Positions 1-45,471 are shown, counted from the stretch's first letter. The stretch: 64,000 nt of DNA from a candidate division TA06 bacterium (GCA_016235665.1 JACRJI010000014.1:147544-211543); one strand, 5' to 3'. Notes: generated by a model not told the origin, from the sequence alone. Translations and numbers: made by a program.

Positions 1-243
1 GCTTTCCAGAACATTGTCTTTCTCATGGGGATTATCCTGGCCATGAACATTCCCCTGAATTGTCTCAGATTCAGTGCCGGGTTTTATACGTTTCTGTTCC
101 TGATAGCAGTGATCTGTATTACTTATCTGCCCCAGCAGATTCCGGCGTTGCTCGTTCCACGATATGGGACACAAACCAAGCTGAAATATATCTTGTATGT
201 AGCAATATTGGTCCTCTTTATTATACAACTTATCGTTGGATAG
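1..243 (+). CDS. hypothetical small membrane protein, possibly 5-prime partial (reading frame open to window edge)
   Basis: ORF 25..243 with hydrophobic segments; no in-frame stop between position 1 and the ATG, so it may continue upstream of the window. Confidence 0.25.
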   Translation, partial: AFQNIVFLMGIILAMNIPLNCLRFSAGFYTFLFLIAVICITYLPQQIPALLVPRYGTQTKLKYILYVAILVLFIIQLIVG

Positions 244-634
244 GAGCAGTATAATGAAATACATCAATGATTATTTTAAACCTATCAGCAAAGAAACGAT
301 CTTCAAAAAGCCAAAATCCGTCAGTGATCAAGGCTTTGCAAGCAAAAAAACCGTCATGAAGGAAACGAAGGACGGCATCGAACGGCACGTTGAGGAAAGC
401 ATCCTCCTTTCCGCTTGCGGTGAGGTAATCAAGGAAAGCGAGATCAGCGGACGTTGTGATGTTTGTGGCGGATACACTTGCCCAAAGCACATCTACCATT
501 GCCAGGCATGTCAAAAGACGTTATGCCTTCGGGATGTCCGGTTCTTAAAGGACAATGAAAACGAAAGCGCGTACTGCCCCGAACATTATACTATTGCTGT
601 ATATAACTATGACACCTGGACACGTCGCAAATAA
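236..634 (+). CDS. Cys-rich zinc-ribbon protein (CxxC...CxxC...CP), first gene of island operon
   Basis: C-terminal CDVCGG...CPKH...CQACQ...CPEH cysteine pairs; directly upstream of and coupled to the ATPase gene. Confidence 0.4.
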   Translation: MDRSSIMKYINDYFKPISKETIFKKPKSVSDQGFASKKTVMKETKDGIERHVEESILLSACGEVIKESEISGRCDVCGGYTCPKHIYHCQACQKTLCLRDVRFLKDNENESAYCPEHYTIAVYNYDTWTRRK

Positions 635-660
635 CGAAGCAATATAACTGGTTATTTATA

Positions 661-2358
661 ATGCTACTTTCTGAAAGAAAATCAACGTTCGATTCGGATC
701 CTTGCCTGCAGGCTGCTCTCCACATCATGGAACTGGCAAGGCAGACAGGTACAGAACGTGAGCTTTTCATCCTGCAGGCCCTAAAAGTGATCCGGGCATT
801 TCCGCAAAACCTCGGACTGATCCAGGGGTATGTCAGGAGCGTGGAGCGGAGGCTTTTGCCAAAGTTGATCAATGAAAAGTATCAAAGCCAGGTGCCGGAT
901 TCAAGGGTTTTTGGCGGGAATATCCACCTGGGAAATGTAGTTGAGAACAATGTTCCCGCCAGGATCACGACGGGACAGCTTAACCAGAACATCCTGATTT
1001 ATGGGAGGACAGGATCAGGCAAGTCGAATTTCAATATGCATGTTATCCCCCAGATTGCAGGGCTTGGGATAAAATGTGAAATATTTGATTTCAAACGGGA
1101 GTACCGGGACCTTTGGACATTACAGGATTGCCAGCCCATGATAGTACTCAATACCAGCAATGACAAATACAACCCGCTGGAACCAGTCGGGAATCCCAAG
1201 GGGTATAACCAGTTTTTCTGGGACATCTGCCAGCAGGATTTCAACATTCGCCCGGAAACTAAGCAAATGTTGATAATTTGTACCGACGAGTTGTATGCCC
1301 GTTTCGGGGTATACAACAATGGGAAATACTTTCCCACCTTATATGACCTCTATGATTACCTTAAAGAGAAGGCTGAAACGGCCAATCCCAAGATATTCAG
1401 GGGAATGGAAGTGATTCTGTCGATAATAAACCGGCTGGGCGCTATGGTTGATTGCAGTTCGGGATATGACCTCTCCGGTTTTAAAACGGTGTGCTATGAG
1501 GTGGATAACCTGAGTGAGGATTTAAGGTCCTGGATTATGAAACTGAGATTAAAAAAAAGCTACGAACAGGGTCTGAAATACAATCAACGGAATATATTGA
1601 GAAAAATTCTGGTTTTCGACGAGGCGAAGATGGTTTTTGGACAGAGCCGGATCGGGGAAGCGACCAACTATTTTAAGGATGCCATTACCCAGCAACGGGC
1701 ATTGGGTACCGGACTGCTTATTTCCGACCAGAACCCGTCGGAGTTGGCCGACTTCATCAGGAATAATGTCTATGGACAGGTCTGTTTTCATCTGGTCCAT
1801 CCTAAGGAAAGGCGGAACGCCGCACAATCTTTGGGTGGCACCGAGGACTTTGAATTGAAGATTGCGCGTTTGGCAATTCCCAACGCATATATTTCTCTGG
1901 GGCATTACCCGTACCCATTCCTGATGAGAATACCCAAAAGCAGGGTAACCTGGCATATCGGGGATGGAGAATTTGATCGTCTTATGCAGCCGGTAATATC
2001 CAGATTACAGTATATCCCCAGATACAAACCCGTTAAACCCGCTATTGTAATAACCCCAAAAGTCAACATACCGGAGAAACCAGCCAGCATTCCCAAAACA
2101 GACTCTACCGGAGATCTGTTTGAGCAATGGATAAATCTTTTAAAACATATTAAGGCGAATCCTGAAGACAATGTTTCGAAAATATACGATAAGCTGGGGT
2201 TGTCCAGAAGGAAGGGCAATTTGATCAAGGAACAGCTTTTGGAAAATTGTTTGATTGAAGAGGAGGTTGTCCATACCAAGGAGAGGAAACGGCCCCAAAA
2301 GCGACTAAAGCTCACTCTAAAGGGGGAGGAATATGTCAAAAGGCAAAGGCGGGCCTGA
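661..2358 (+). CDS. FtsK/HerA/VirB4-superfamily P-loop NTPase (DUF87-like)
   Basis: Walker A ILIYGRTGSGKS; Walker B hydrophobic run ILVFDEAKM; downstream LLISDQNPSEL sensor-like segment; 565 aa. Confidence 0.6.
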   Translation: MLLSERKSTFDSDPCLQAALHIMELARQTGTERELFILQALKVIRAFPQNLGLIQGYVRSVERRLLPKLINEKYQSQVPDSRVFGGNIHLGNVVENNVPARITTGQLNQNILIYGRTGSGKSNFNMHVIPQIAGLGIKCEIFDFKREYRDLWTLQDCQPMIVLNTSNDKYNPLEPVGNPKGYNQFFWDICQQDFNIRPETKQMLIICTDELYARFGVYNNGKYFPTLYDLYDYLKEKAETANPKIFRGMEVILSIINRLGAMVDCSSGYDLSGFKTVCYEVDNLSEDLRSWIMKLRLKKSYEQGLKYNQRNILRKILVFDEAKMVFGQSRIGEATNYFKDAITQQRALGTGLLISDQNPSELADFIRNNVYGQVCFHLVHPKERRNAAQSLGGTEDFELKIARLAIPNAYISLGHYPYPFLMRIPKSRVTWHIGDGEFDRLMQPVISRLQYIPRYKPVKPAIVITPKVNIPEKPASIPKTDSTGDLFEQWINLLKHIKANPEDNVSKIYDKLGLSRRKGNLIKEQLLENCLIEEEVVHTKERKRPQKRLKLTLKGEEYVKRQRRA

Positions 2359-2683
2359 ACACCAAAAGGCACAATGCCTTATAAGGGATTACTACCAGGC
2401 CCGGGGCATGGTGGCCGTTATAGAGGCTTTTCTTGGAAACAAGAATATAGATGTGTTGGTGCAGGATCCAGAGACTGGGCAGATCATAGCCATAGAATAC
2501 CAGACGACGATTAAACATGCTTTGGAGAATGTTCTGCTTGACCATGTTTTTTGTGACGAGGTGATTCTCGTTTCGGCCGATATCCGGGTGCTTGGGCAAA
2601 TGAAGCGGAAGATTGACGGGAACGGGGCAATTAACGGACAAAAAGTAAAATATAGGCTACTCAAGGAGTTTATTCCACAATAA
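2333..2683 (+). CDS. hypothetical 116-aa protein (possible degenerate PD-(D/E)xK-like fold)
   Basis: ORF with GGGGAGG RBS 6 nt upstream, overlaps ATPase stop by 26 nt; IDVLVQDPETGQIIAIEYQ resembles YraN-like nuclease core but is not diagnostic. Confidence 0.35.
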   Translation: MSKGKGGPEHQKAQCLIRDYYQARGMVAVIEAFLGNKNIDVLVQDPETGQIIAIEYQTTIKHALENVLLDHVFCDEVILVSADIRVLGQMKRKIDGNGAINGQKVKYRLLKEFIPQ

Positions 2684-2771
2684 TGGTAATCTGGTCAGTA
2701 GTAATAACCCGGAATAAAATATGGAATTTAACCAACGGACTAAAATCCCAAAACGAAAGGAGGTGAACAGT

Positions 2772-3512
2772 ATGCAAAGAAAAACAATATCCCTGATTGT
2801 GGCAGGCAGTGGGGTGATCAAAGACCTGGCGATTTCTCCGGAAACGACGGTCCATGACATCATCAATCAGAACGGACTATCTGGCTATGCTCTGTCCAAG
2901 GGCAACGAACAGAGTCTCAGTCAGGAGGATAACATCTTCAATTCGGTCATGGATGGCGACGAGGTCTATGCATCGCCGGAGGATGTTTCTGTAGGCAGAC
3001 AACCCCCTGCCTCCCCCTTCGGGGGGAAACCGTCCTTCCAGTTTGAAAAGATAACTGGCATCCGGCAAACGGTAACCCACTCAGGAGTGACGGAGACCCG
3101 CAAGGTGGAGGTGGTCCGGACTAGAACGTATGATAAGACCCTATTTCTCAAAAAGCGGTCAGGGCTGCCCTATTGGATGAAGGCCGGTTGGTTTCAGACA
3201 AATGATGGATACAATGGGTGGTACCGGACTAAATACGGAAGTTGGAAGGGTTATATCCATCGGGATTATCAGGATTCCTACTCGTATTTCATCATCGATC
3301 CTCCGAGTGAAGTAAAAAATGGATCCCATGGAGCTTGTTTTTCCCACCGGGGAAACGGTAAATATCAAGTGCATTTTAGTGTCAAGCCGACGGATATCGG
3401 GGATGGTATTCTAACGGTTGAGAGACTTATTAGCGAATCATTCGGTCAAAAGAACCACAAGGCACATAGAGGAGGCTTTATATCATGTTTACGAAAACTG
3501 GGGCTTTTGTGA
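2772..3512 (+). CDS. ubiquitin-like (beta-grasp) domain protein fused through an FGG motif to a ~160-aa C-terminal domain
   Basis: N-terminal KTISLIVAGSGVIKDLAISPETTVHDII...DGDEVYA matches the ThiS/MoaD/ubiquitin beta-grasp pattern; linker RQPPASPFGG then C-terminal domain; strong AAAGGAGG RBS before ATG 2772. Confidence 0.55.
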   Translation: MQRKTISLIVAGSGVIKDLAISPETTVHDIINQNGLSGYALSKGNEQSLSQEDNIFNSVMDGDEVYASPEDVSVGRQPPASPFGGKPSFQFEKITGIRQTVTHSGVTETRKVEVVRTRTYDKTLFLKKRSGLPYWMKAGWFQTNDGYNGWYRTKYGSWKGYIHRDYQDSYSYFIIDPPSEVKNGSHGACFSHRGNGKYQVHFSVKPTDIGDGILTVERLISESFGQKNHKAHRGGFISCLRKLGLL

Positions 3513-3541
3513 TGAGGTTTCAATGACAGCGGAGAAGGAAG

Positions 3542-4168
3542 ATGATTGAGCAGCAGATTGAGGCCCATATCACATTGTTAAAGGTAAAAGTAATTGCTCA
3601 CAGCGTTGTGGAGGTAAAAAACCTATGTGCTTCCATTTTAGACCTGCTGGAGCTTCACCGGATAGCGGCCAAGTATGGTTCGGTTGAGGACGAAAAAAGG
3701 ATTGTTTTTATAATTCCATCGCTTTTCCTACGGGATTGTTTAGATTACTTGAGGCAACAGGAGGAGGAATCGCTTCATTTCGTAACCGGAGTCCATATAG
3801 ATAATATTGTGATCCTTGACCGGCTTGTCAAACTGGAATTTGAAAAGCAGACTGTTGTCTTTGCCAAGGCTGATTCTACTTCGGTTAAAAATGCCTTGCT
3901 GGAACTGACGAGAAACGGTTATCGGCTTTTTGCATACTTTCATATCCATCCGGGCACCGGAGAACCAGCCACGCATCCTTCAAGTATCGATAAAAAGCTT
4001 GATGAGCTGTTGCAACGCGGAAAATATCAGGCAGTCGGTGCGATATTTAGTAGGGATGGTTACGCGCGGTTCTTCACCGACGGCAATTATGAAGTCCAAA
4101 TATACGGAAGGGGGGTGCAACAGATTGATGATAGAACTTTTAAGGTCGTTGAACCGGCCAAAACATAA
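3542..4168 (+). CDS. JAB/MPN (JAMM) metallo-isopeptidase
   Basis: JAMM-type motif FHIHPGTGEPATHPSSID (HxH...S..D); 208 aa; between Ubl and E1 genes. Confidence 0.7.
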   Translation: MIEQQIEAHITLLKVKVIAHSVVEVKNLCASILDLLELHRIAAKYGSVEDEKRIVFIIPSLFLRDCLDYLRQQEEESLHFVTGVHIDNIVILDRLVKLEFEKQTVVFAKADSTSVKNALLELTRNGYRLFAYFHIHPGTGEPATHPSSIDKKLDELLQRGKYQAVGAIFSRDGYARFFTDGNYEVQIYGRGVQQIDDRTFKVVEPAKT

Positions 4169-4187
4169 GACTTTTCATACCCCAGGC

Positions 4188-4934
4188 ATGGCCATGAGGT
4201 GTGAAGAAGACCGCAGGAATCTGACGGCCAGACAGGAAGTCGTTTTAGGTTTTGACCAGAATGTTATGAAAAGATTGTCCATATTGCAGATTGGAGCAGG
4301 TGGGCTTGGTGGAGAGATATGCCAGGGGTTGGTCCGAAAAGGCGTAGGGACCGTGAAGGTATTTGACGGGGATGTCGTCGAGCCATCAAACCTAACGCGA
4401 CAGAGGTTTTATCCAAAAGACCTTTACAGGAATAAGGCGTTGTCATTGGCTGGCAATCTTATGAAAGAGGCGATCATTAAAACTGAAATTATTGCTTATC
4501 CTTTCATGTTCCAACGGGCATTGGAGGAGGGGATGAATATGGATTGTGATATCGTGATTTGCGCCCCGGACAATGACGAAGTCCGGCGTTTTACGGCGAA
4601 GTATTTTCTCAATAAAGTGCCGGTTATATTTACGGGATTGGACCGGAAGGCAAATACCGGCTATGTTTTCATTCAGGAACCGGGCAAAGCTTGTTTCGAG
4701 TGTGCGATACCGTCTGCAAAAAGGAATAAAAGAGAACCGTGCCCGAATACTCCGGCAGTCATTGACTTGGTCAAGATCATTTCAGGTTTGGTCCTTTTTG
4801 CGGTTGATTCGACGGTAATGCATAGAAAACGAAACTGGAACTACAGACAAATATTCCTCTGCGGGTATATCCCCGAAATTATATGGACGGTTAAAAGAAG
4901 TAATAAATGTCAGATTTGCGGTACCAAATGGTAA
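4188..4934 (+). CDS. E1-like ubiquitin-activating / ThiF-MoeB family adenylyltransferase (minimal, ~249 aa)
   Basis: Rossmann ILQIGAGGLGGEICQGLVRKGVG, then FDGDVVEPSNLTRQ (E1/ThiF signature), CFEC...CQIC zinc pairs; start chosen 20 nt after JAB stop rather than the overlapping ATG 3930. Confidence 0.8.
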   Translation: MAMRCEEDRRNLTARQEVVLGFDQNVMKRLSILQIGAGGLGGEICQGLVRKGVGTVKVFDGDVVEPSNLTRQRFYPKDLYRNKALSLAGNLMKEAIIKTEIIAYPFMFQRALEEGMNMDCDIVICAPDNDEVRRFTAKYFLNKVPVIFTGLDRKANTGYVFIQEPGKACFECAIPSAKRNKREPCPNTPAVIDLVKIISGLVLFAVDSTVMHRKRNWNYRQIFLCGYIPEIIWTVKRSNKCQICGTKW

Positions 4935-5015
4935 CAGACCCCTATCGAATAAGGCGAAGTAAATTAAGGCGAGATCTAAAAACGAAGGGTTTATCGAAGC
5001 CGCAGGCTATAATAT

Positions 5016-5516
5016 ATGAAACCGCCATTAAGACAGGGAAGTGCGAATGACTTTCAGACACCAGCCCAAGCATTGCACCCGTTATACCAATATTTGAAAA
5101 AAGATTGGACAATATGGGAGTGTGCCCAGGGTAAGGGGAATATTGTCAGAGAATTACGGGCACGAGGGTGGAAAGTAATAGGCACAGATATATTAGATGG
5201 TCATGATTATTTATCTTATCTGCCGTCGAGATTCAATTGTATGATTACTAATCCTCCATATAGCATCAAGCAGCTGTTTTTAGAACGTGCATATTCTCTG
5301 CAAAAACCTTTTGCGTTTCTCTTGCCCTTGACCACATTTGAAACGAGAAAGCGACAGTATCTTTTTGAAAAATACGGGTTGGAGGTGATATTTTTCGATA
5401 AACGAATAAATTTTGAAACACCGAGCGGGAGAGGAACGGGAGCCTGGTTTGCGACGGCGTGGTTTACATGGGGTCTGAACATTGGCAAACAAATGACGTT
5501 TTGTAAATATGAATAA
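5016..5516 (+). CDS. small DNA methyltransferase, probably N6-adenine (phage Dam-like), NPPY motif
   Basis: ITNPPYS catalytic motif IV; 166 aa, size typical of phage orphan MTases. Confidence 0.6.
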   Translation: MKPPLRQGSANDFQTPAQALHPLYQYLKKDWTIWECAQGKGNIVRELRARGWKVIGTDILDGHDYLSYLPSRFNCMITNPPYSIKQLFLERAYSLQKPFAFLLPLTTFETRKRQYLFEKYGLEVIFFDKRINFETPSGRGTGAWFATAWFTWGLNIGKQMTFCKYE

Positions 5517-5733
5517 AGTGCGTACAATGGATCAACTAATTGACATAATAACCTTATCAAAACTCTTGAGCGTCAAGCCGATGACCATATATGGTTGGAT
5601 ACACGAGGGTGTAATTCCATATATCAAGCTTGGCCGGCTGGTGCGTTTCAGTGAAAAGGAAGTTCAAGCCTGGCTTAACAAGAAGAAACGAGAGGGACAA
5701 CCAGTAAAAGCAACGGATATAGATTTAACTTAA
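5509..5733 (+). CDS. AlpA/Xis-family helix-turn-helix excisionase-like DNA-binding protein
   Basis: LLSVKPMTIYGWIHEGVIPYIKLGRLVRFSEKEVQAWL matches excisionase/AlpA HTH pattern; immediately upstream of the integrase. Confidence 0.7.
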   Translation: MNKVRTMDQLIDIITLSKLLSVKPMTIYGWIHEGVIPYIKLGRLVRFSEKEVQAWLNKKKREGQPVKATDIDLT

Positions 5734-5802
5734 CTTGACATGGCAATAGGGTATAGGTTAACCCCAAAAGGTAATAATTCATTCATAAAGGAGGGAAGTG
5801 AA

Positions 5803-6861
5803 ATGCGTATATATAAAAGAAATGAGATTTGGTATTTGGACTACAATTATAAAGGCAAGCGATATCGTAAACGCGTCGGTAAATCCCAGAAAATGGCAGA
5901 ACTGGCACTTAAGAACATTGAGGTGAAAATTGTTAAAAAAGAGCATCTCGGCGTACAGGACGACAAAAAGATACTATTCGAGGATTTTACGACAAAATAT
6001 CTCGACTACGCCAAAGTAAACAAGTCCCCTAAATCATATTACCTCAACATAGGTAATATGAAAGCCATGCTGCCGTTTTTCAAAGGGAAATATCTATCCG
6101 AGATCACCCCTCAGGACATCGAGAGATATAAAGCAGAACGATCTTCGACGGTAAAACCAGCTACCCTTAACAGGGATCTTGCCTGCCTGCGGCATATGCT
6201 CAATAAAGCCATCGAGTGGGGATACCAACAGGTGAATCCGATGAAAGGGGTAAAACTCCTGAAGGAGCCTCCGGGGAGGTTGCGTTTCTTGTCCGAGGAG
6301 GAAATCAAAATACTACTGCATGAGTTGCCAGCAGGCTCAAAACTCATCGTACTGGTCGCGATGTACACCGGGATGAGAAGGTCTGAAATCCTCAATCTCA
6401 ATTGGAGCAATGTGGATTTGAAGAACAGGATCCTTGTCGTCGAGAAAACCAAGACCAATGAGCGGAGAATCATCCCTATCAACGATGGTTTGTATTCTCA
6501 GCTACATGAACTGTCCACAAGGAAAAAGAGCGAATTGGTATTTGCCGAATGTAGGATCAATTTACGGAGGAACTTCACAGATGCTTTGAAGAGGGCAAAT
6601 ATCAGAAATTTCAGATTTCACGACCTTCGCCACACCTTCGCGAGCTATCTTGTAATGAGCGGAGCCAGTATCAAAGTGGTCCAGCAGCTTCTCGGCCATA
6701 AGGATTTGAAAATGACGATGAGATATTCGCACCTTTCAAACGAACACCTCCAGGAAGCTGTTGGAAAGTTAAATTACACAAAACAGGATAAGATAGAACC
6801 GCAAACAGTAAGAGAAACCAGGAGCCGATATAAGTACAATCATATTATGTCCCTAAGGTAA
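5803..6861 (+). CDS. int: tyrosine site-specific integrase (phage integrase family)
   Basis: C-terminal HDLRHTFASYLV...LLGHKDLKMTMRYSHL catalytic box; N-terminal arm-type WYLDY..GKRYRKR; RBS AAGGAGGG before ATG 5803. Confidence 0.9.
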   Translation: MRIYKRNEIWYLDYNYKGKRYRKRVGKSQKMAELALKNIEVKIVKKEHLGVQDDKKILFEDFTTKYLDYAKVNKSPKSYYLNIGNMKAMLPFFKGKYLSEITPQDIERYKAERSSTVKPATLNRDLACLRHMLNKAIEWGYQQVNPMKGVKLLKEPPGRLRFLSEEEIKILLHELPAGSKLIVLVAMYTGMRRSEILNLNWSNVDLKNRILVVEKTKTNERRIIPINDGLYSQLHELSTRKKSELVFAECRINLRRNFTDALKRANIRNFRFHDLRHTFASYLVMSGASIKVVQQLLGHKDLKMTMRYSHLSNEHLQEAVGKLNYTKQDKIEPQTVRETRSRYKYNHIMSLR

Positions 6862-6865
6862 CAAA

Positions 6866-6894
6866 AATAGCCCAGCTTTTTAAGCTGGGCTATT
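6866..6894 (+). terminator. perfect 11-bp inverted repeat hairpin AATAGCCCAGC/GCTGGGCTATT after int
   Basis: seen in sequence; not followed by a T-run; the shared stem motif recurs at 7694. Confidence 0.4.
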
Positions 6895-6928
6895 CTACTC
6901 ACAACGACAATAACCTAAGGAGGATAAA

Positions 6929-7150
6929 ATGTTAATTTATCATTTATTTGCACTGATATTCATTGCAGTGATGGCAAGAAAATATTCTGCCAAGGAGATC
7001 TTGCGGGCAGCAATTAAGGCGGGAATCATTGCATATATAATCATGGGTCTGGTATTTGCTCATGGAATTATCAGAAAAATAGCCTTCCGTTCAGTTATTC
7101 ACCTGCAACAAAATAATAACAATTCCTACAACAATAACCCCCTTATCTAA
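6929..7150 (+). CDS. small membrane protein, hypothetical
   Basis: strong RBS TAAGGAGG; two hydrophobic helices; Asn-rich tail. Confidence 0.4.
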   Translation: MLIYHLFALIFIAVMARKYSAKEILRAAIKAGIIAYIIMGLVFAHGIIRKIAFRSVIHLQQNNNNSYNNNPLI

Positions 7151-7170
7151 ATTAAAGGAGGTACACCATA

Positions 7171-7599
7171 ATGAGTAACATGGCTAAAATCTACATTCCC
7201 GAGGATGTCCTCTATTATCTGAAACTTGTTGGTTTCGATAAATTTGTATATTCGAACATTGACAAAGTGGTTTTCCGGACTGATCTTTCAACTGGTGGTT
7301 TAGCGTTTATTGGGAGCCGTCCCCGGCTGGTGCACATTAAATTACGTTCCCCACCCGTCAATAATACAGCATGGAAACAATTAACCGCCATATCCAATGC
7401 AACAACTTATGTACATGAAGCCGCACATCATTACAGATGGGAGAATTATCATGATCGTGGAGAGTATGCACCAAAATGTTATGAATGGCGGTTCTTACGG
7501 GCATTGCAACCTCTGATCGAACCTCAAGGAAAAATCCGAATTGTTATTCACAGAACGTGGTGGGGTGGCTTTAAGGGGTGCAGTTTATTAATCGTTTGA
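7171..7599 (+). CDS. hypothetical protein with HExxH zincin-like motif (VHEAAHH)
   Basis: RBS AAAGGAGG; HEAAH motif; 142 aa. Confidence 0.4.
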   Translation: MSNMAKIYIPEDVLYYLKLVGFDKFVYSNIDKVVFRTDLSTGGLAFIGSRPRLVHIKLRSPPVNNTAWKQLTAISNATTYVHEAAHHYRWENYHDRGEYAPKCYEWRFLRALQPLIEPQGKIRIVIHRTWWGGFKGCSLLIV

Positions 7600-7693
7600 A
7601 TGCTCGGGTCCCTGATGGAATAATAAATACATTTTAGTGCATTTGAATGGGCATTTACAAAAAGCCGTTAGGAAGTTAAGCTTTGCTAAAGAG

Positions 7694-7727
7694 AATAGCC
7701 CAGCATAGTAGCCGGGCTATTCTTTTC
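7694..7727 (+). terminator. hairpin AATAGCCC-loop-GGGCTATT followed by T-rich tract
   Basis: 8-bp stem sharing the AATAGCCC motif with hairpin at 6866; CTTTTCT follows. Confidence 0.4.
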
Positions 7728-7729
7728 TG

Positions 7730-7758
7730 TTGACAAGGAGTATATCGGATGTTACTAT
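7730..7758 (+). promoter_or_regulatory. sigma70-like promoter TTGACA-17 bp-TACTAT upstream of the caspase-like/cyclase gene pair
   Basis: TTGACA at 7730, 17-bp spacer, TACTAT at 7753. Confidence 0.35.
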
Positions 7759-7790
7759 TATGTGAGTAAAAAAATCTAGTATTAATTGCA

Positions 7791-8462
7791 GTGATTTATA
7801 TGAGAAAAAGCATAAAACATAAGTATTCATCTCTACTTATCATTGAATGCGATTCAAATAAACTTCAGAGACAAAACATTGATATAGCAAGTAAGATTAA
7901 CGACCTTTTTCAAAAATTACCATTTTGTAAGCACAAATACATTCGTACGTTTGAGAAATCAGATTTATGCTTAAAAATAAATGAAATCTCTAAAGAACAT
8001 TACGATATTATTGTTTTAACAGGCCATACTTTTACTGATGGAGGGGGTAGGCCTGTCCGTTTCGATTTTGCAAGTGACTATAAACCAGAATTATCAGTCT
8101 TACCTTCTTTTTTAAATACATTTAAACCTAAATGTTTGATTATGGCTTCGTGTAAGGGGTCTCATTTTATTACCACGGATGTGATGTTTAATGGGATGCC
8201 AACACTAAAAGAAATATATGGCTCTCCGGTTTTGACAAATTCAAAACAACTTCAAATATTATTACTATTGATACCATATATTATATTCAGCGATAAATAT
8301 GATGACGGCATTTTATTTTTAAGCAATATTGTTAATTTTGTACAATCTGGAGGATATATTGTTAGGCATACACGTGCGGAATTTATAAATAAAAGACCGA
8401 TTAAATATATTCAACAAGAAATGTATGATTCTCTAAAAAGTATTTTAAGTAATAGTCATTAA
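7791..8462 (+). CDS. caspase-like (peptidase C14/CHAT-type) protein
   Basis: IIVLTGHTFTDGGG (His-Gly) and KPKCLIMASCKGS (compare caspase KPKLFFIQACRG) about 42 aa apart, matching caspase His/Cys dyad spacing. Confidence 0.5.
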   Translation: MIYMRKSIKHKYSSLLIIECDSNKLQRQNIDIASKINDLFQKLPFCKHKYIRTFEKSDLCLKINEISKEHYDIIVLTGHTFTDGGGRPVRFDFASDYKPELSVLPSFLNTFKPKCLIMASCKGSHFITTDVMFNGMPTLKEIYGSPVLTNSKQLQILLLLIPYIIFSDKYDDGILFLSNIVNFVQSGGYIVRHTRAEFINKRPIKYIQQEMYDSLKSILSNSH

Positions 8463-8478
8463 TAAAGGCACAACACAT

Positions 8479-9267
8479 ATGGCACATTATAGATATAATT
8501 CTCTAGAAGATTATTTAATATCTCAGCCCCTAACGGTTGATGGTGTTTTGGATGATGGATGGGGTGCCTCGTTTCCAGTTAAAGGGCGTGAAGTAGAGGC
8601 AACAATATTATTTTCTGACATTTCGTCATTCACTCGACGCACTCTTGATTTAACCCCTACGGAAACATTAATATTTGTCAACAATTTTTTCTCATGGATT
8701 ACAGCTGAAGCTTTAAGGGATAAACCAGCGATTATTGACAAGTATGTCGGTGATGAGATGATGATTGTATTTTCAAATGAGTTTGGGTCTAAAGATCATT
8801 TTGTCGATGCTATTCAAACCGCAAGGTGGATGGGAGAATATGACATACTTGATTTCCGTCCTCACATAGGAATAGCAAGTGGCCCCGTTATTATTGGCTA
8901 TGTTGGTACACCTGTTAAATATAATTGTTCTGTATTTGGTCATACCGTCGCATTAGCGAAGAGGTGTGCAGGGGTGAAAATGAGCGATACTAGTCCATAT
9001 ATGGTTTTCCCGACACGATCATGGCAGGGTCGTTCGTTTGAAGAAATAATTCCACTTGTGAAAATGAAGAAATCGGAAAGTGAATTTGTTGAATTACCAC
9101 AAAGCTGGAAATTAGCCCCAAGTCGTAAAGTCAGCTTAAACAATATTGGTGATGTTGACGTAATGGGCATTATAAATATGTTATTAACAGAACCATCACA
9201 GTCCGCAGTGGAAAGAGCAAAAGAATCGTTAACTATTCTTAAAGCCAATGGCAGTTGCAGACAATAA
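8479..9267 (+). CDS. stand-alone class III nucleotidyl cyclase (adenylyl/guanylyl-cyclase catalytic domain)
   Basis: ATILFSDISSFT (metal Asp), KYVGDEMMIVF (second Asp), RPHIGIASGPVIIGYVG, YNCSVFGHTVALAKR (Asn/Arg transition-state residues); only ~45-aa N-terminal extension. Confidence 0.7.
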   Translation: MAHYRYNSLEDYLISQPLTVDGVLDDGWGASFPVKGREVEATILFSDISSFTRRTLDLTPTETLIFVNNFFSWITAEALRDKPAIIDKYVGDEMMIVFSNEFGSKDHFVDAIQTARWMGEYDILDFRPHIGIASGPVIIGYVGTPVKYNCSVFGHTVALAKRCAGVKMSDTSPYMVFPTRSWQGRSFEEIIPLVKMKKSESEFVELPQSWKLAPSRKVSLNNIGDVDVMGIINMLLTEPSQSAVERAKESLTILKANGSCRQ

Positions 9268-9336
9268 TGATTATCAATTAGACACTACTGCATCGTTAGG
9301 CACAAATCCGACACAACAGCATTTTATCAATAATAG

Positions 9337-9365
9337 TTGACTTATAACCTATTGTGATGTAAAAT
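9337..9365 (+). promoter_or_regulatory. sigma70-like promoter TTGACT-17 bp-TAAAAT
   Basis: TTGACT at 9337, 17-bp spacer, TAAAAT at 9360; drives the tRNA-like fragment transcript. Confidence 0.4.
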
Positions 9366-9413
9366 AGTCCAAGTGCGTTGAAATAATAGTGGCAATCTCT
9401 TAATCAGCGGGTC

Positions 9414-9441
9414 AAAGGTTCGAGTCCTTTATGGCGCACCA
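9414..9441 (+). other. tRNA 3-prime-end fragment (T-arm AAAGG-TTCGAGT-CCTTT, acceptor 3-prime strand, discriminator, CCA); candidate att-site remnant
   Basis: GGTTCGAGTCC T-loop and ...ATGGCGCACCA end; no complementary 5-prime acceptor strand within 90 nt upstream, so not a complete tRNA. Confidence 0.45.
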
Positions 9442-9450
9442 GTTTTTAGC

Positions 9451-9477
9451 AGCACAGTTAAAATACTGTGCTTTTTG
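9451..9477 (+). terminator. intrinsic terminator AGCACAGT-loop-ACTGTGCT plus TTTTTGTTT
   Basis: 8-bp perfect stem followed by T-run. Confidence 0.6.
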
Positions 9478-9494
9478 TTTGGGGTCCGCAGGCC

Positions 9495-9523
9495 TTGACA
9501 AAGGGTGTTAATATTGGTATCTT
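9495..9523 (+). promoter_or_regulatory. sigma70-like promoter TTGACA-17 bp-TATCTT upstream of ssrA leader
   Basis: TTGACA 9495, 17-bp spacer, TATCTT 9518. Confidence 0.35.
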
Positions 9524-9528
9524 TATAC

Positions 9529-9745
9529 AAGCGATCAAATAAAAGGGGGGCGTCCTTCGGAAACAAAGCAAGAGGGACTACCTCAGTATGACGAAGCAAA
9601 CAAATAAAAGGGGGGCGACCCCGCATCAGGCATAATACAAGCAAACAATTCCTGCGGGGCAGGGAAGGCATCAAATAAAAGGGGGCGACACTTCGACAAG
9701 TTGGGCAAGGGGCGTTTCTCAGTGCAAGGAAGCAATCAAATATTA
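9529..9745 (+). repeat. three degenerate tandem copies (~67-nt period) of the ssrA 5-prime end motif CAAATAAAAGGGGGGCGAC in the ssrA leader
   Basis: copies at ~9538, ~9602 and ~9687 share ATCAAATAAAAGGGGG(G)CG(AC) with the authentic tmRNA start at 9746; the third copy also shares ACTTCGACAAG with GTTTCGACGG. Confidence 0.6.
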
Positions 9746-10102
9746 GGGGGCGACAGGTTTCGACGGTAAAGAAAGGGTTTAAGTGGCATGCCGAGAAAGT
9801 CAGAGGGCTCGTTAAAATACTGGCAACGTCATAATTGACACTTACAACTACGCTCTGGCAGCTTAATTTTAGCTGCCATGCCGCTGCAGGTCCCCGCCTA
9901 TCGGATCTGCAAACGGCATCGCAAAGATGGGCTGGTCCGAGACGCCCGGCCCGGGCATTTCGGATGAGATCTTAGGGCTGCTCTCTTAAGGGATCGTGTT
10001 TGTGCGAGACTTTTAGGGAAAAGACCAAAACACAAAACAAGCATGTAGAGGCTTAGGTTCTTACCTTATCGGACGTGGGTTCAATTCCCACCGCCTCCAC
10101 CA
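9746..10102 (+). ncRNA. ssrA: tmRNA (SsrA), one-piece
   Basis: 5-prime GGGGGCGACAGGTTTCGACGG; 3-prime GGACGTGGGTTCAATTCCCACCGCCTCCACCA; acceptor GGGGGCG/CGCCUCC pairs; tag ORF ending ...AAC TAC GCT CTG GCA GCT TAA (NYALAA*). Confidence 0.9.
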
Positions 10103-10355
10103 TTATTCCTCCGTGCCGGGCAGTAGTCCGCCGAAGCTTTAGCGAAGGCGGGCACCACACCAAAATCCAGAGCTTGGCAATAGCCCCGCCAACGGCGGGG
10201 CACCATCTTGGATCAACAGCCGTTCCGCAACAGCGGGACGGCTGTTATTTGTTTGAGCCTCTTGACAAAATGCTCCGGCAGGATTATCCTATATCAGCGG
10301 GCGGTAGTTCTCAAAGGGTTCCATCAAGGACAAACCATAACTAGGAGGTTCTGCC

Positions 10356-12164
10356 ATGAATAAATACCTGATCATGGCCGGTCTTATTCTCTGCCTGGTC
10401 CAGCCGGGCCTGGCCCAGGTTATTGCCAACCGGGATTCCCTGGCCCTGGAGCAGCTGTTCGACAGTTTCTTCCGGGCATATGTGGCCCAGAACCCGGAGA
10501 CGGCCACCCAGCTGGGGCTGTCCCGCGGAATGGGCTATGAGTATGACCGGTCAAGTCTGGACGACATCTCCCCGGCCGGAGACCAGGCAAACATAGGGCT
10601 GTTGAAACAACACCTTAACCGGCTCAACAAGATCGACAGAAAGGCCCTGACCCCGGCCCAGCGCCTGGATGCCAGGATCTTTGAGTGGTGCCTGCGGTCC
10701 ACCCTGGACGGATATAAGTTCATTGATCAGGGATACCTGGTCAACCAGATGACCGGGCCGCATTTCCAGCCGGTGAACTTTTTGACCGGATATCACACCA
10801 TCGAAACCAGACAGGATGCCGAAGACTACCTGGCCCGGATGGAAAAGATACCCCTCAAACTGCAGCAGGCCGGGCAACGGGTGGAGTCTCAGGATAAAAA
10901 GGGCATCCGCTCTCCGGTTTTCATCGCCGACATGGTGATAGGGACCATCAACGAACTGGTGAGCCCCGGGGCGGAAAAGAACATCCTCTACCTTGACTTT
11001 GCCGGCAAGATAAAAAACATTCCGGGCATAGGTTCCTCTGAACAGGAGAGTTTAAGGCAACGGGCCGAAAGGATCATCTCGGAAAAGATCTATCCCGCCT
11101 ATCGGAAATATCTGGAGCAGGTCAAGGCCGTCCGGGCAAAATCCACCGATGCCGCCGGGGTCTGGAATCTGCCCCAGGGGGAACAGTATTACGCCCATTG
11201 CCTGAAGCAGAACACCACGCTTTCCCTGAGCCCCCTTGAGGTCCATAAAATGGGACTGGCCGAGGTCGAGGCCCTGCAGAAAAAGGGGCGGGCCCTGCTG
11301 GAATCCCTGGGAATAAAGGAAGGGGACAATTACGGGGACCTGGTGCGGCAGTACTGGGCATACTTGGACAGGTCCGAGATCAAGAACCAGATAGCCTACA
11401 ACGCCTCCGGCCCCTGGAAGAACCAGGTGATCAGGGATTACCAGTCATTCATAGACAGCGCCCTGGTAAAAATGCCGGAGGCCTTTGACTACCTTCCCAG
11501 GACCAAGGTCCAGGCCCAGCCTGTGCCGGAATTCAAGGAACAGGGAGGCGTCACCTATTACGAGCCGGCCTCGCTGGATGGCAAGCGGCCGGGGGTGTTC
11601 TTCGTCAACATGATGAACATGCCCAACAAGGCTATGATGAGGTCCCTGACCTACCACGAAACGGTGCCGGGCCACCATTACCAGCTGGCGGTGCAGCAGG
11701 AACTGGGAGGCAACAGGATGTACCGCAATCTTTTCTTCCTGACCGGTTTCGGCGAAGGCTGGGCCATGTATGTCCAGGAGCTGGCTTACGAGCTGGGCTG
11801 GCTGCCGGACATCTACTCCCGGATCGCCGAGGTCAATTCCCAGCTGTTCCGGGCAGTGCGGGTGGTACTGGACACCGGGATCCATCTCAAGCAGTGGAAC
11901 CGCGGGCAGGCCATGGCTTACATGGAGCAGAACCTGGGCTGGGCCTCGGGCACCGAAGTGGACCGCTACATCGTCTGGCCGGGCCAGGCCTGCTCCTACA
12001 CCCTGGGCCGGATGCACATCAAGCAGCTGCGGGAGAAGGCAAAAGAGAAGATGGGGCCGCGCTTCGATCTGAAGAAATTCCACCATCTGGTGCTGGAGAA
12101 CGGCAGCATGCCCCTGGACATACTGGGGAAAAAAGTGGACGATTACATCAAGGGCGGCATTTAA
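10356..12164 (+). CDS. secreted DUF885-like zincin metallopeptidase-family protein
   Basis: signal peptide MNKYLIMAGLILCLVQPGLAQ; HETVPGHHYQ HExxH-type motif; 602 aa. Confidence 0.6.
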   Translation: MNKYLIMAGLILCLVQPGLAQVIANRDSLALEQLFDSFFRAYVAQNPETATQLGLSRGMGYEYDRSSLDDISPAGDQANIGLLKQHLNRLNKIDRKALTPAQRLDARIFEWCLRSTLDGYKFIDQGYLVNQMTGPHFQPVNFLTGYHTIETRQDAEDYLARMEKIPLKLQQAGQRVESQDKKGIRSPVFIADMVIGTINELVSPGAEKNILYLDFAGKIKNIPGIGSSEQESLRQRAERIISEKIYPAYRKYLEQVKAVRAKSTDAAGVWNLPQGEQYYAHCLKQNTTLSLSPLEVHKMGLAEVEALQKKGRALLESLGIKEGDNYGDLVRQYWAYLDRSEIKNQIAYNASGPWKNQVIRDYQSFIDSALVKMPEAFDYLPRTKVQAQPVPEFKEQGGVTYYEPASLDGKRPGVFFVNMMNMPNKAMMRSLTYHETVPGHHYQLAVQQELGGNRMYRNLFFLTGFGEGWAMYVQELAYELGWLPDIYSRIAEVNSQLFRAVRVVLDTGIHLKQWNRGQAMAYMEQNLGWASGTEVDRYIVWPGQACSYTLGRMHIKQLREKAKEKMGPRFDLKKFHHLVLENGSMPLDILGKKVDDYIKGGI

Positions 12165-12287
12165 GAGAGGTTGCGCCCGGAAAAAATACCGTCCAAAGGA
12201 CCTGCCGAAACAGTTTCCCCCGGGTTGCTGTTTCGGCTTTTCTTTTTGCTTGTAATTAGAGCTTAAATTATATACAATTAAATGCTT

Positions 12288-12655
12288 ATCTAACTTGCTC
12301 AGGAAAAGTAGATAAAATAAACAGGTTTGGTAATAACGTAGATATTGCTCAATTATGTTCTTTTCTTTTTGCCCCGCCAAACAGAAAAGAACCAAAAGAA
12401 AAAGCTCGTCGCTTAAAACTTGTGGTGAGCGGGGTCGAACCACTCTCCGGGCCACGCTTACGCCCTGCCTACGTATAGCTTCGGCGGGCCCGCGCTGCGC
12501 TTCTCGTTGCCGGCGGGCTTGTCTGAACTCGGGTTTTGGCTAAGCCCTCAAACATGCAGACAAGCTTTTTCCGCCATCAACTGCGATGCTCACTGATCGT
12601 GATTCGATAAACTCATCACAAGTTTTTAACGCGACAACCGGGGTTGGCACCGGGT
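12288..12655 (+). repeat. dispersed structured repeat, copy A (MITE-like / ncRNA family)
   Basis: shares >85% identity blocks with five other copies (see findings); TIRs CTCAGGAAA...TTTCCTGAG. Confidence 0.8.
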
Positions 12656-21674: not shown

Positions 21675-21951
21675 TATAAATAGTGGATATGGTAAAACCC
21701 AGATTTAACCAGGTTATGTTCTTTTCTTTTTGTGCCGCTAACAAGAAAAGAACCAAAAGAAAAAGCTCGTCGCAAAGAACCATCCGGGCGCTGCGCTTCT
21801 CGTTGCCGGCGGGCTTGTCTGAACTCGGGATTTTGCCAATCCCTCAAACAGGCCAGACAAGCTTTTAACCGCCGTCAACTCCGATGCTCACTGATGGTTC
21901 TTAACGCGACATACCTTGGTTGGTTGACGGTTGATCATCCTGTTTCCTGAG
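21675..21951 (+). repeat. dispersed structured repeat, copy B
   Basis: shares core with copies A,C-F; stem GGGATT/AATCCC shows compensatory change relative to GGGCT/AGCCC. Confidence 0.8.
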
Positions 21952-30487: not shown

Positions 30488-30766
30488 CGGGAAAACTGGG
30501 GAACAAAAGGCACCAGCCCCGGTATGTCGCGTTAAAACGATCAGTGAGCATCGCAGTTGACGGCGGAAAAAGCTTGTCTGCATGTTTGAGGGCTTGGCCA
30601 AAGCCCGAGTTCAGACAAGCCCGCCAGCAACGAGAAGCGCAGCGCGGGCCCGCTGAAGCTTTAGCGTAAGCGTGGCCCGGAGAGTTTTAAGCGACGAGCT
30701 TTTTTCTTTTTGGTTCTTTTTCTTAGTTGGCGGAACAAAAAAGAAAAAGAACAATAATAAAATTAA
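30488..30766 (-). repeat. dispersed structured repeat, copy C (inverted orientation)
   Basis: reverse complement matches core of copies A,B,D-F. Confidence 0.75.
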
Positions 30767-33981: not shown

Positions 33982-34173
33982 ATGATCAAGAAACTTTACC
34001 GTTCCCGGGACAATAGAATGGCCGGAGGGGTCTGCGCCGGACTGGCCAAGTACTTTGAACTGGACCCCACATTGGTCCGGCTGGGAATGGCGGTCCTGAT
34101 GGTGCTGGGCGGAGGGATACTGATCTACATCATCGCCTGGCTGATAGTGCCAGAGGAACCAACGGTACAATGA
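33982..34173 (+). CDS. PspC-domain protein
   Basis: LYRSRDNRMAGGVCAGLAKYFELDPTLVRL matches PspC domain. Confidence 0.7.
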   Translation: MIKKLYRSRDNRMAGGVCAGLAKYFELDPTLVRLGMAVLMVLGGGILIYIIAWLIVPEEPTVQ

Positions 34174-34929
34174 ACTATTAGCCCTACAACGCTCTGCCTA
34201 TGCCAAGGCTTCCTCCTACGCAACTGCTGCGGCGGACATGTTGGCAGACATGCATAGCTTCGCCGGACAAGCAATTGACAATTAGCAGGAACCCCGGAGC
34301 CTGAGATATCAGGTCCGGGGTTTTGTGTTTTTAAATCCAAATGATTATCCCATTCGCTCAGGAATAATTTATGGGATCAATTATTGGACACGGGCTTCGA
34401 TAAGGTTTCGATAAACTCAACCCGGCGCCTCAGCCGAACGATTTACACGGATTTATTGAATATATCTGCGAAAATCGGTAATAATCAGCGTGTATCTGCG
34501 TTCCGGTTGGTTTTTGGTTAGGCTTCCTGAAGGAATGGGATAGTCATTTAACCCGAATAACACATAGGTCCCCCAAAACATAATTCCTAAAATAACTTGA
34601 CATTTATCCTGGTTTGGTAGTATCATACTTTTCAATAAATGTAAAAACAGATTTGTTCACTCGTCATATACACTCTGTATATAAAAATGTTTAACCAAAC
34701 ATTAAACATACAATGTTCTGGCATGCATTTTGCCAGACCAGACCAAAGATCTGAGTCGTTACCGACAGAAAACAATGACCTAAAGTATAAGGTCCCGTCT
34801 TGCTTCGCATCAGGAAGCAGGGCGGGGCTTTTTGTTTAACATTTCATTTTTTACACCTTAGAAAACGAGAAAATATTGATTACTGACATCCTGCGGGGCG
34901 CACACTCCGTTCTGCGCCCCGCAGAGAAG

Positions 34930-35060
34930 ATCATCAATGCCACAGAGAACAACCCGCATGTTACAGAGGCTTTTGTCAATGCCGCATGGACCTTTCCGCA
35001 TACCACAGAAATGATCGTCAATGTCACAGAGAGGAAACCGCATAATGCAGAACAGGCACA
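34930..35060 (+). repeat. three tandem ~42-bp direct repeats (TCAATGYCACAGAGA..AAACCGCAT..) in the ~1-kb leader upstream of the RHS gene
   Basis: seen in sequence; antisense translation shows repeated LCxIDD..CG units. Confidence 0.5.
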
Positions 35061-35217
35061 TATGATGTATCGAAGACACAGTGCTTCTGAAACCGCTTGC
35101 TCTCATTAATCACACGGTCACCCATACCAAAAAGGCAGTTGTGCTGCAGATGGAATTGTTGAAAATATTAACATGGGGAACTAAATAACAAAATCATATA
35201 AAGGAGTAAATTACAAA

Positions 35218-39603: not shown

Positions 39604-39615
39604 GAAAGGTTTAAA

Positions 39616-40047
39616 ATGAAGATATTAAAAATTACATTTTTAACGGTTGTTTTAACGATCACCGCTTTCATCATCATTAGGCAACCTTGGCAAAAAAATG
39701 TAATGGTTTTATCTCAACCATTACTTCAAAACAATCAAACAATTGAATTATGGGAAAAACCATATCATAATATCTTTAGCATGGAGTATACAACATGGTT
39801 TGTATTTAATAATAACGGAAATAGGACTTGGCATTTGATTGATGACAAATATATTTCCTTTGGCACAGTTTCGTTATTCGTATCAAACAACAACGATACA
39901 ATTAGAGTTGAAACAACTGGAGCAGCTACACCTCTTCATTTAATTGCACAGTATAGTTTATCTGATAAAAATTTTGTTGCAAGAAGTGAAGAAACTGTTA
40001 GTAATAAAGCAGGATGGAAATTGCTTAGATCATTAAAAATAAGATAA
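39616..40047 (+). CDS. putative cognate immunity protein (TM/secreted, 143 aa)
   Basis: immediately downstream of toxin tip; AT-rich like the tip; followed by hairpin CTGCCCCGCC-TAAT-GGCGGGGCAG. Confidence 0.5.
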   Translation: MKILKITFLTVVLTITAFIIIRQPWQKNVMVLSQPLLQNNQTIELWEKPYHNIFSMEYTTWFVFNNNGNRTWHLIDDKYISFGTVSLFVSNNNDTIRVETTGAATPLHLIAQYSLSDKNFVARSEETVSNKAGWKLLRSLKIR

Positions 40048-40100
40048 ATAGATGTCTCAACTGCCCCGCCTAATGGCGGGGCAGTGATGGTACTGCTGAA

Positions 40101-41366: not shown

Positions 41367-41386
41367 TTAATTGAAAGGGAAAGAAA

Positions 41387-41890
41387 ATGCATAAAAATAT
41401 TCTAATAGCGATAGTGGCAATATTGTTATCTTGCACAAAATATGGTATATCAAGTAATGATAAAAATATTATTTACGGTTTAGTTATAAGTGATCAAAAA
41501 AGTATTCATGCACAAGAGATGCCTACGTTTAATATAAAAAAAATATATGTTAATATTCTCGGCTGTGACCCAAACAATGAATTGGTTGAATATTTAAAGC
41601 AAAATAATGCGATTGATATAGTGCCTGCATCGAAGAGCATTAATGTTTACCACGACCCAGTGAAGTTTGATTATTATAAAAACCCAATTTCAGTGAGGAG
41701 TAAAAGCAATAACGAAAATGGCATTATATTTGAGATAAAAAGTATTAAAAAGGAACCTAAAACAGGGATAATAACTGTTAACTTATTCTATTATGCGGGG
41801 CCTTTATTCGCGGGTAATTATGAGTATTTAATAGATAAAAACGATAAAGAATGGTATATTGTAAAAAGAAGCATTGGCGAAATATCATAA
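41387..41890 (+). CDS. putative immunity lipoprotein for orphan cassette 1
   Basis: signal/lipobox-like N-terminus; AT-rich; followed by perfect palindrome CCAGACCCGCCCTTAAGGGGCGGGTCTGG. Confidence 0.45.
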   Translation: MHKNILIAIVAILLSCTKYGISSNDKNIIYGLVISDQKSIHAQEMPTFNIKKIYVNILGCDPNNELVEYLKQNNAIDIVPASKSINVYHDPVKFDYYKNPISVRSKSNNENGIIFEIKSIKKEPKTGIITVNLFYYAGPLFAGNYEYLIDKNDKEWYIVKRSIGEIS

Positions 41891-41938
41891 TGATGTGAAC
41901 CAGACCCGCCCTTAAGGGGCGGGTCTGGTTCTTACAGC

Positions 41939-42739: not shown

Positions 42740-42747
42740 AAAGGAGA

Positions 42748-43173: not shown

Positions 43174-43269
43174 TGCACAATAAGATTTTCCACGACGAAG
43201 CCCCGCCGATTGGCGGGGCTTTTACGTTTGGTGGTATTTAGGCCCGGCTGTTCTTGTCCGCCGTAGTTT

Positions 43270-43542: not shown

Positions 43543-43690
43543 TGAAATATTGAAATGCTAAACTAATAAGCAGTTAAAAAACAATGCTGGAAATAGTAAT
43601 TCTGGATCAGAGTACACTGAACCAACAACAGAAGTAAAAATGATCGACAAAAAAGAGATCCGGCGGTAGTACAAAGAGACCATCCAGCCC

Positions 43691-43996: not shown

Positions 43997-44013
43997 ACTT
44001 GGCCAAATGCCTG

Positions 44014-45401: not shown

Positions 45402-45471
45402 GATCTGCCGCCGCCAGCCGGCCATTGAAATATGCGGTTTCCTGGGGTATAATGGTTCAAAAGAAAATGCC

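Follow-up and report, generated by a model that had tools for sequence, protein, structure and literature searches.

The present study deals with the AT-rich beginning of a 64,000-nucleotide (nt) stretch of DNA, hereafter the window, from a candidate division TA06 bacterium (GCA_016235665.1, JACRJI010000014.1:147544-211543). Positions 1-9396 of the window very probably make up the right-hand portion of a genomic island with a length of at least 12.46 kilobases (kb), integrated in a tRNA-Lys(CTT) gene of a candidate-division TA06-type host by its own tyrosine integrase, and the best-supported description of the element is that of a lambda-type integrative element with an anticodon-centred attachment site (attP). 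A first-pass annotation, generated from the nucleotide sequence of the window, had proposed an island with integrase, excisionase and methyltransferase genes and two candidate defence modules, which abuts the ssrA (transfer-messenger RNA, tmRNA) locus and ends at a 3' fragment of a tRNA gene. The right boundary of the island and its target are now fixed to the base.

The right junction and the integration target

The island ends at a block of 45 nt (9397-9441) that is identical (100%, BLAST) to positions 32-76 of intact tRNA-Lys(CTT) genes, the identity beginning at position 32, which is the first base of the anticodon loop. A backward parse from the terminal CCA recovers the T arm, the variable loop, the 3' strand of the anticodon stem and the loop CTCTTAA with the anticodon CTT. 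The block occurs once in the window and was not matched in any of 100 shuffles (0 expected by chance), and its last 25 nt were found at eight places in 185,579 species genomes, six of which are intact tRNA-Lys(CTT) genes. The tRNA 3' fragment placed earlier at 9414-9441 is therefore real, as is the lack of a 5' half before it (ARAGORN predicts no tRNA and Rfam gives no tRNA match even at E<=10), but its length is 45 nt and not 28. A sub-threshold Rfam match to a tRNA-like small RNA model, SpF41 (E=0.01), spans 9370-9479.

Five relatives (L006, L007, L010, L011 and L063) carry an intact tRNA-Lys(CTT) gene directly upstream of ssrA and no island; for the last three, the flanking sigma-70 gene served as query in a metagenome scan and a protein search. 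Empty sites of this kind had been named beforehand in the first-pass annotation among the observations on which its proposal would stand or fall, and in this respect the proposal holds. The gene order at the empty sites is sigma-70, tRNA-Lys and ssrA, with the gene for a DegP-like protease ahead of sigma-70 in L010, L011 and L063, and the tRNA is followed by a terminator, a TTGACA promoter and a leader, as is the fragment in the window. The ssrA genes of L006 and L007, the latter labelled UBP2 UBA5202, specify the same tag peptide as that of the window, DTYNYALAA. The homology of the relatives to the window breaks exactly at 9397, which demonstrates an insertion in the window with its right junction at 9396/9397, and since the tRNA at the empty sites is clean and functional, a deletion in the relatives is ruled out as the explanation. 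Around ssrA, the empty-site relative L011 shares 93-96% identity with the window. The searches with the host flank (DegP-like protease and sigma-70) yielded contigs of other strains only. A second occupied site, L002, is 92% identical in the arm, the fragment and the flank and differs in its cargo (HEPN, DUF5677).

The presence of an intact tRNA-Lys at the exact place in the relatives, together with the perfect 45-nt match, identifies tRNA-Lys(CTT) and not ssrA as the target. The island lies beside ssrA, as stated in the first-pass annotation, but ssrA is simply the next gene, starting 304 nt downstream of the end of the fragment. This proximity is an argument for an island aimed at ssrA, with the fragment as a displaced ssrA end; tmRNA genes are moreover the most enriched integration targets in the Islander survey (PMC4383910). 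The possibility is nevertheless refuted. The single structured RNA found by ARAGORN and Rfam is a complete tmRNA gene (Rfam model positions 1-374), and the island lies on its 5' side, with ssrA downstream. An island integrated in ssrA would be marked by a fragment of the ssrA 3' end and by a location 3' of the regenerated gene, and neither feature is seen here, the fragment being tRNA-Lys(CTT) over its entire length.

Composition and extent of the AT-rich segment

The GC content is 42.2% in positions 1-9480 and 53.0% in the remaining window, a difference also apparent from the comparison of 1-kb windows (Mann-Whitney p=1.5e-4), and the backbone directly downstream of the AT-rich part has 55-62% GC. 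The abrupt shift reported earlier is thus borne out, and the earlier figure of about 60% GC holds locally, except that the climb starts at about 9.5 kb, ahead of ssrA and not past it. The AT-rich part has genes on the + strand only. The window is also AT-rich at 34-44 kb and 58-60 kb, so that composition by itself is insufficient proof of an island; these patches would favour the view that there is no island, the AT-rich DNA being native and the fragment having arisen by local duplication and decay of tRNA-Lys. That view is refuted by the empty sites, since in all five relatives the whole segment is missing and the tRNA at the junction is perfect; in addition, the integrase (int) and excisionase (xis) genes lie within the segment, and the same scaffold is found in other host contexts, beside tRNA-Arg and tRNA-Ala.

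The island extends beyond the start of the window. Positions 1-9443 are matched at 100% identity by the Logan contig L001 (SRR12113407), which continues leftward for another 3065 nt of 34% GC, from which the minimum length of 12.46 kb follows. Logan contigs commonly break within tRNA-Lys, so that the stop of L001 at 9443 is uninformative. L001 was also considered as a complete island between attachment repeats and this was ruled out, its left end being devoid of tRNA sequence and of the arm motif described below.

The integrase, the excisionase and the arm

The assignments of the tyrosine integrase and the AlpA-like excisionase made in the first-pass annotation were upheld by domain searches (Table 1), the latter protein matching the HTH_17 family. 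The integrase has PF00589 and phage-integrase N-terminal domains, and the catalytic residues R, HxxR, H and Y are readable in its translation; NCBIfam models for Xer and integron integrases all scored under their cut-offs. More than 3800 homologues were retrieved at E<=1e-40, and those at 61-79% identity adjoin tRNA genes. A scan of IMG/VR gave no close match to the integrase, the best being 30% identical, and no occurrence of the arm pattern. Homologues of the excisionase (47-71% identical) lie directly upstream of int in six sibling islands, which is in keeping with its candidate role as a recombination directionality factor.

The arm next to the fragment contains the sequence GGCACAAATCCGACACA, an instance of the motif GGCACAAATNNGRCACA, which is found in one copy per locus beside the tRNA or attachment site in L001, L003, L005, L071-75, L079 and L080. 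In all islands with the layout of the window, its form GGCACAAAT-NN-GRCACA is found at a distance of 98-103 nt from the anticodon loop; in the other layout (L003, L071) the distance is about 123 nt. By analogy with lambda-type attP, these motifs would be arm-type sites for the integrase.

The arm also carries a predicted outward-facing, sigma-70-like promoter, the hexamers of which are kept in L002 and L074. Three siblings, L076, L079 and L081, have a full-length tRNA beside int, preceded by the equivalent site, so that the promoter-like site in the window may be no more than the promoter of a tRNA. Between it and the 45-nt block are 31 nt, precisely as many as make up a tRNA 5' half. These 31 nt may represent a decayed, island-borne 5' half; a functional 5' half was considered and rejected on account of the ARAGORN and Rfam results given above and a fold z-score of 0.61.

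Sibling islands and their layouts

Scaffold and variable genes were told apart by tblastn against sibling islands. The shared scaffold comprises, on the left, a gene for a 670-amino-acid (aa) TPR/winged-helix protein with a divergent gene for a 213-aa protein and, on the right, xis, int, the small genes p73 and p142 and the arm of about 100 nt. The products of p73 and p142 are 83-92% identical between islands whose integrases share only 67-79% identity. The p142 protein, which has no Pfam or PHROG match, has representatives in only 6 clusters among 1.84 billion proteins (E<=1e-3).

The siblings follow two layouts. The classical arrangement is that of L071 and L003, whose integrases are 79% and 67% identical to that of the window: an intact tRNA-Lys(CTT), encoded on the opposite strand, has its 3' end next to the int end of the island, and the core is inverted. 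The window, L002, L074, L076 and L079 have the second layout, in which the tRNA sequence faced by the int end is on the same strand. An internal inversion was considered as the cause of this orientation and discarded, as no inverted repeats were found; the same layout, with its conserved arm geometry, has come up independently in L074, L076 and L079, and is thus a family variant and not a rearrangement. In L074 (integrase 73% identical), the best parallel to the window, int, p80, p142 and a CBASS-type cargo (cyclic oligonucleotide-based antiphage signalling system; genes for LexA-like, patatin and CD-NTase proteins) are followed by an arm homologous to 9290-9396 of the window and a 45-nt fragment of tRNA-Arg(TCT), which likewise begins at the anticodon loop.

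A much larger arrangement was encountered in CALMGM010000005 (CALMGM010000005.1, 202238-281547; L003 and L005), where an intact tRNA-Lys(CTT) and a 45-nt fragment are 79 kb apart, the GGCACAAAT-NN-GRCACA motif is present on the arms at both ends and a gene for a large serine recombinase abuts the fragment. This element may be a very large or composite island.

A wider reading of these loci is possible, though on the whole doubtful, and is put forward tentatively: they may belong to an undescribed, widespread family of islands of candidate phyla (TA06, Edwardsbacteria and WOR-3-type metagenome-assembled genomes) in which the attachment cassette is a portable tRNA gene module. Such a cassette could be swapped among Lys, Arg and Ala targets, be inverted relative to the integrase, and supply its own promoter when upstream of the tRNA part or its own terminator when downstream. 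The islands would have two or three fixed anti-phage slots, and p73 and p142 would be better kept than the integrase.

Genes of the island and its cargo

The features of the island and its host flank are listed in Table 1.

Table 1. Features identified in and beside the island (positions in the window; length in aa where given)
Feature	Position	Strand	Evidence
Genomic island (very probable), right-hand part	1-9396	+	42% GC; missing from five empty-site relatives
126-aa cysteine-rich, zinc-ribbon-like protein	254-634	+	gene call in L001; Cys motifs in translation; no family match
565-aa HerA/FtsK-type P-loop ATPase	661-2358	+	PF01935 DUF87 E=3.2e-6; PADLOC mad8 E=4.6e-15 and HerA models
116-aa protein	2333-2683	+	open reading frame and gene call; no match in Pfam, PADLOC, PHROGs
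246-aa protein	2772-3512	+	gene call; weak match to uncharacterised PHROG family only
208-aa protein with JAB/MPN-like motif (HIH-x10-SSID)	3542-4168	+	motif in translation; no Pfam match
ThiF-family E1-like adenylyltransferase, 269 aa	4125-4934	+	PF00899 E=1.4e-25; PADLOC E1-E2 (Cap2-type) down to E=1.7e-17
166-aa DNA methyltransferase, NPPY motif	5016-5516	+	PHROG 799 'DNA methyltransferase' E=1.6e-36; ITNPPYS; no Pfam match
Excisionase / recombination directionality factor candidate (HTH_17)	5509-5733	+	PF12728 E=9.5e-12
Tyrosine integrase, 352 aa	5803-6861	+	PF00589 E=4e-37; gene call; catalytic residues present
p73, small hydrophobic scaffold protein	6929-7150	+	90-92% aa identity in L071, L074; no family match
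p142, scaffold protein with HExxH motif (HEAAHH)	7171-7599	+	83-86% aa identity in L003, L071, L074
220-aa cyclase partner	7800-8462	+	gene call; no match in Pfam, PADLOC, PHROGs, PDB
Class III nucleotidyl cyclase, 262 aa, Pycsar-like candidate	8479-9267	+	PF00211 E=1.1e-9; PADLOC PycC E=1.2e-5
Candidate integrase arm-type binding sites, GGCACAAATCCGACACA	9299-9315	+	motif GGCACAAATNNGRCACA near attachment site
Predicted outward-facing sigma-70-like promoter in island arm, TTGACT-17-TAAAAT	9337-9365	+	consensus scan
attR: displaced tRNA-Lys(CTT) 3' fragment, anticodon loop to CCA	9397-9441	+	100% identity to tRNA positions 32-76
Original tRNA-Lys terminator, host DNA	9451-9472	+	terminator scan; same sequence after intact tRNA-Lys in L006, L007, L011, L063
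ssrA (tmRNA), intact host neighbour	9746-10102	+	ARAGORN, tag DTYNYALAA; Rfam RF00023, 182.6 bits, full length
Interspersed repeat copies	~12226-12500, 21714-21911, 30513-30758, 44005-44322, 45465-45788, 48518-48837		

At least two slots hold genes that vary between the siblings. The right slot, between p142 and the arm (7730-9267), has a GC content of 30% and carries a class III nucleotidyl cyclase, which also matches family-3 adenylate cyclases in PDB (E=1.2e-7), and a small partner gene. The same slot holds CBASS in L074 and HEPN and DUF5677 genes in L002. The pair resembles the pyrimidine cyclase system for antiphage resistance (Pycsar) in the class of the cyclase, its weak PycC match and its pairing with one small gene in a defence-type slot. 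It differs from Pycsar in the gene order, the partner coming first and the cyclase second, and in the partner, in which the domains of Pycsar effectors (a cyclic-nucleotide-binding domain fused to a TIR or transmembrane module) were not detected. Structure prediction with AlphaFold from single sequences was unusable for the 220-aa partner (pLDDT, the predicted local distance difference test, 37) and for p142, the values being 35-37.

The middle slot (254-5516) extends from the cysteine-rich protein to the methyltransferase, the latter having been identified correctly in the first-pass annotation by its NPPY motif. The matches of the 565-aa ATPase to NCBIfam HerA and VirB4-like models are each under the respective cut-off, and the protein is a candidate for either a defence protein or a DNA translocase. 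In PDB, the 208-aa protein weakly matches the BRCC36 deubiquitinase (E=0.04-0.1). With respect to ubiquitin-like conjugation systems (Bil, or CBASS Cap2-Cap3), which combine an E1, an E2, a JAB deubiquitinase and a ubiquitin-like target in one locus, the E1 is clear and the JAB call is made from the motif and these matches; no E2 and no ubiquitin-like protein were found by Pfam, PADLOC or NCBIfam profiles. By tblastn, the genes of this slot are not conserved among the siblings, with the exception of a distant E1 in L076, their own middle slots carrying radical-SAM-like genes and a larger ATPase (L071, L074) or E2-CBASS with ThiF (L076).

Because the cargo lies at positions whose gene content varies between sibling islands, both candidate modules appear to be mobile cargo in variable slots, a reading that is well supported by the sequence comparisons and agrees with that of the first-pass annotation. 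The two modules would thus be horizontally acquired genes in exchangeable slots and not core genes, and it is plausible that they are defence systems.

The element could also conceivably, though this is unlikely, be a phage satellite, a small prophage or a mobilisable element, the cluster from the ATPase to the E1 then serving transfer or replication and not defence. The weak matches of the ATPase to VirB4-like and DNA-import ATPases point in this direction, as do L081 and L079, islands with related integrases that encode a D5-type primase-helicase and an MCM-type ATPase, respectively. Yet no capsid, terminase, relaxase, primase or replication-initiator family was detected in the 12.5 kb seen, and searches with Pfam, NCBIfam and PHROGs found no prophage genes (capsid, terminase, portal, tail) there. 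Moreover, the middle cluster is not kept among the siblings and so fits cargo better than core functions, and the IMG/VR results described above also speak against this reading. Of the genes that mark an integrative conjugative element, a relaxase together with a type IV secretion or coupling protein, the searches of the 12.5 kb gave one candidate, the HerA/FtsK/VirB4-like ATPase, with scores under all the curated cut-offs.

Proposed mechanism and present state of the island

The lambda-type integrative element favoured here would have entered tRNA-Lys(CTT) through site-specific recombination by the island integrase, with the crossover in or just past the anticodon loop. The attP site would bear a copy of the 45 nt of the tRNA that begin at the anticodon loop and end with CCA. 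On integration, this copy would rebuild the tRNA at the far left junction (attL), and the 45 nt of the host, along with their terminator, would remain at the right junction (attR) as a fragment without function. Excision would involve the integrase, the HTH_17 excisionase and the arm-type sites, 98 nt from the core in the window, with the HTH_17 protein setting the direction toward excision, and the island may be mobile at present.

Several points weigh against this account. Neither a tRNA, a second copy of the 45-nt block nor the arm motif was detected at the left end of L001, its extension included, and searches for the intact tRNA-Lys or attL of this genome by way of the flanking sigma-70 proteins yielded only contigs of other samples. 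The integrase sits toward the displaced fragment and not toward an intact tRNA as in L003 and L071, and the element in the window could be part of a larger composite. As regards the cargo, the PycC score of the cyclase is weak and no domain was detected in its partner; the JAB assignment of the 208-aa protein is likewise weak and motif-based.

The results at the left end could mean that the insertion, though real, is by now a fixed remnant or belongs to a larger composite or a tandem array, and that it can no longer be excised as a unit because the left junction has been lost or rearranged. The wide spacing of tRNA and fragment in CALMGM010000005, with a serine recombinase beside the fragment, and the resemblance of the 31 nt ahead of the block to a decayed tRNA 5' half would agree with such a state. 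It is considered unlikely, if worth keeping in mind, given that the int and xis frames are intact, with the catalytic residues in place, that the 45-nt block is without decay and that the arm is 92% conserved with L002. The empty site in the closest relative, 93-96% identical, further suggests a recent gain.

Other observations in the window and its relatives

Between the fragment and ssrA, a promoter at 9495-9523 is followed by three diverged tandem units of about 65-71 nt each (9529-9745). Each unit begins with ATCAAATAAAA-GGGGGGCGAC, a copy of the DNA just 5' of ssrA and of the first 10-25 nt of the tmRNA. Judged by the spacers between tRNA-Lys and ssrA (180-522 nt), the number of units ranges from about 1 to 6 among the relatives; Tandem Repeats Finder reported no repeats in the leader, the copies being too diverged. 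The units are probably part of a pre-tmRNA leader, and we know of no described function for them.

Comparison of positions 10103-12500 with L007 and L063 showed that the gene directly 3' of ssrA varies. The window and L010 share a DUF885 gene there, L007 has a gene for a TPR protein and L063 has other DNA, and the classical 3' side of ssrA is therefore variable too in this lineage. In L066 (GCA_030655055.1, JAURWH010000185.1), unrelated DNA at 2395-2552 follows the sigma-70 terminator at the place expected for the tRNA-Lys promoter, and is another insertion just upstream of the same tRNA-Lys gene.

The second AT-rich region of the window (34000-44000; 41-46% GC) contains genes of the RHS type, namely an RHS-repeat protein of 1461 aa (35218-39603) and a second RHS fragment (40140-41366), along with small open reading frames, and looks like a polymorphic-toxin locus. 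Some copies of an interspersed repeat of about 130-320 nt, which is present at least six times in the window and also in the relative L010, flank this region. The third AT-rich patch, at 58000-60000, has 41.5% GC.

Comparison with known systems

In the Islander collection, 3760 of the 3919 mapped islands have a 3' fragment and 2083 have an anticodon-centred attP, the commonest class (Hudson, Lau & Williams 2015; PMC4383910). The present island shares with the Islander-type class A islands in tRNA genes (tDNA islands; PMC4383910) an internal tyrosine integrase of the PF00589 family, a displaced 3' tDNA fragment at one end in the orientation of the target, identity to the tDNA that begins at the anticodon loop and includes the 3' end, an atypical base composition and, in relatives, a clean, uninterrupted target; the tRNA-Arg(TCT) fragment of L074 conforms to the same class. 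Unlike in class A, the integrase is near the displaced fragment and not near the regenerated tRNA, and the host is of an uncultured TA06/Edwardsbacteria-type lineage. By the Islander criteria, a regenerated intact tDNA stands at the other end of such an island, in the same orientation and upstream of the 3' fragment; in the present case that end lies to the left of both the window and L001. An anticodon-centred tDNA island is a known and ordinary kind of element, found here in a little-studied lineage, and knowledge of how such islands work is left unchanged. What the locus offers is a comparative set for mining defence genes in uncultured phyla, in which the same scaffold carries CBASS, HEPN/DUF5677 or a cyclase module, and an integrase family with tRNA-Lys, tRNA-Arg and tRNA-Ala targets, from which site-specific integration tools could possibly be developed.

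Islands and prophages integrated in ssrA, of which CP4-57 of E. coli is said to be an example, share with the present island the neighbourhood and the general mechanism of a tyrosine integrase acting on a tRNA-like 3' end, and differ from it in that ssrA is untouched here, with the island on its 5' side and a fragment of tRNA-Lys(CTT). The conserved outward-facing, promoter-like site at the end of the island, next to the attachment core, recalls Pcirc of ICEclc, reportedly an outward-facing end promoter that is active only in the circular form, from which it differs in that the equivalent site precedes a full-length tRNA in L076, L079 and L081. P4-like satellites and P2 prophages are reported to be hotspots of defence genes. 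No sequence relationship to P4 was found and a primase, psu/delta-type genes and a cos site were not detected here, and yet the organisation is alike: a conserved integrative scaffold carries interchangeable, putatively anti-phage cargo at fixed positions, represented among the siblings by the cyclase module, CBASS and HEPN/DUF5677.

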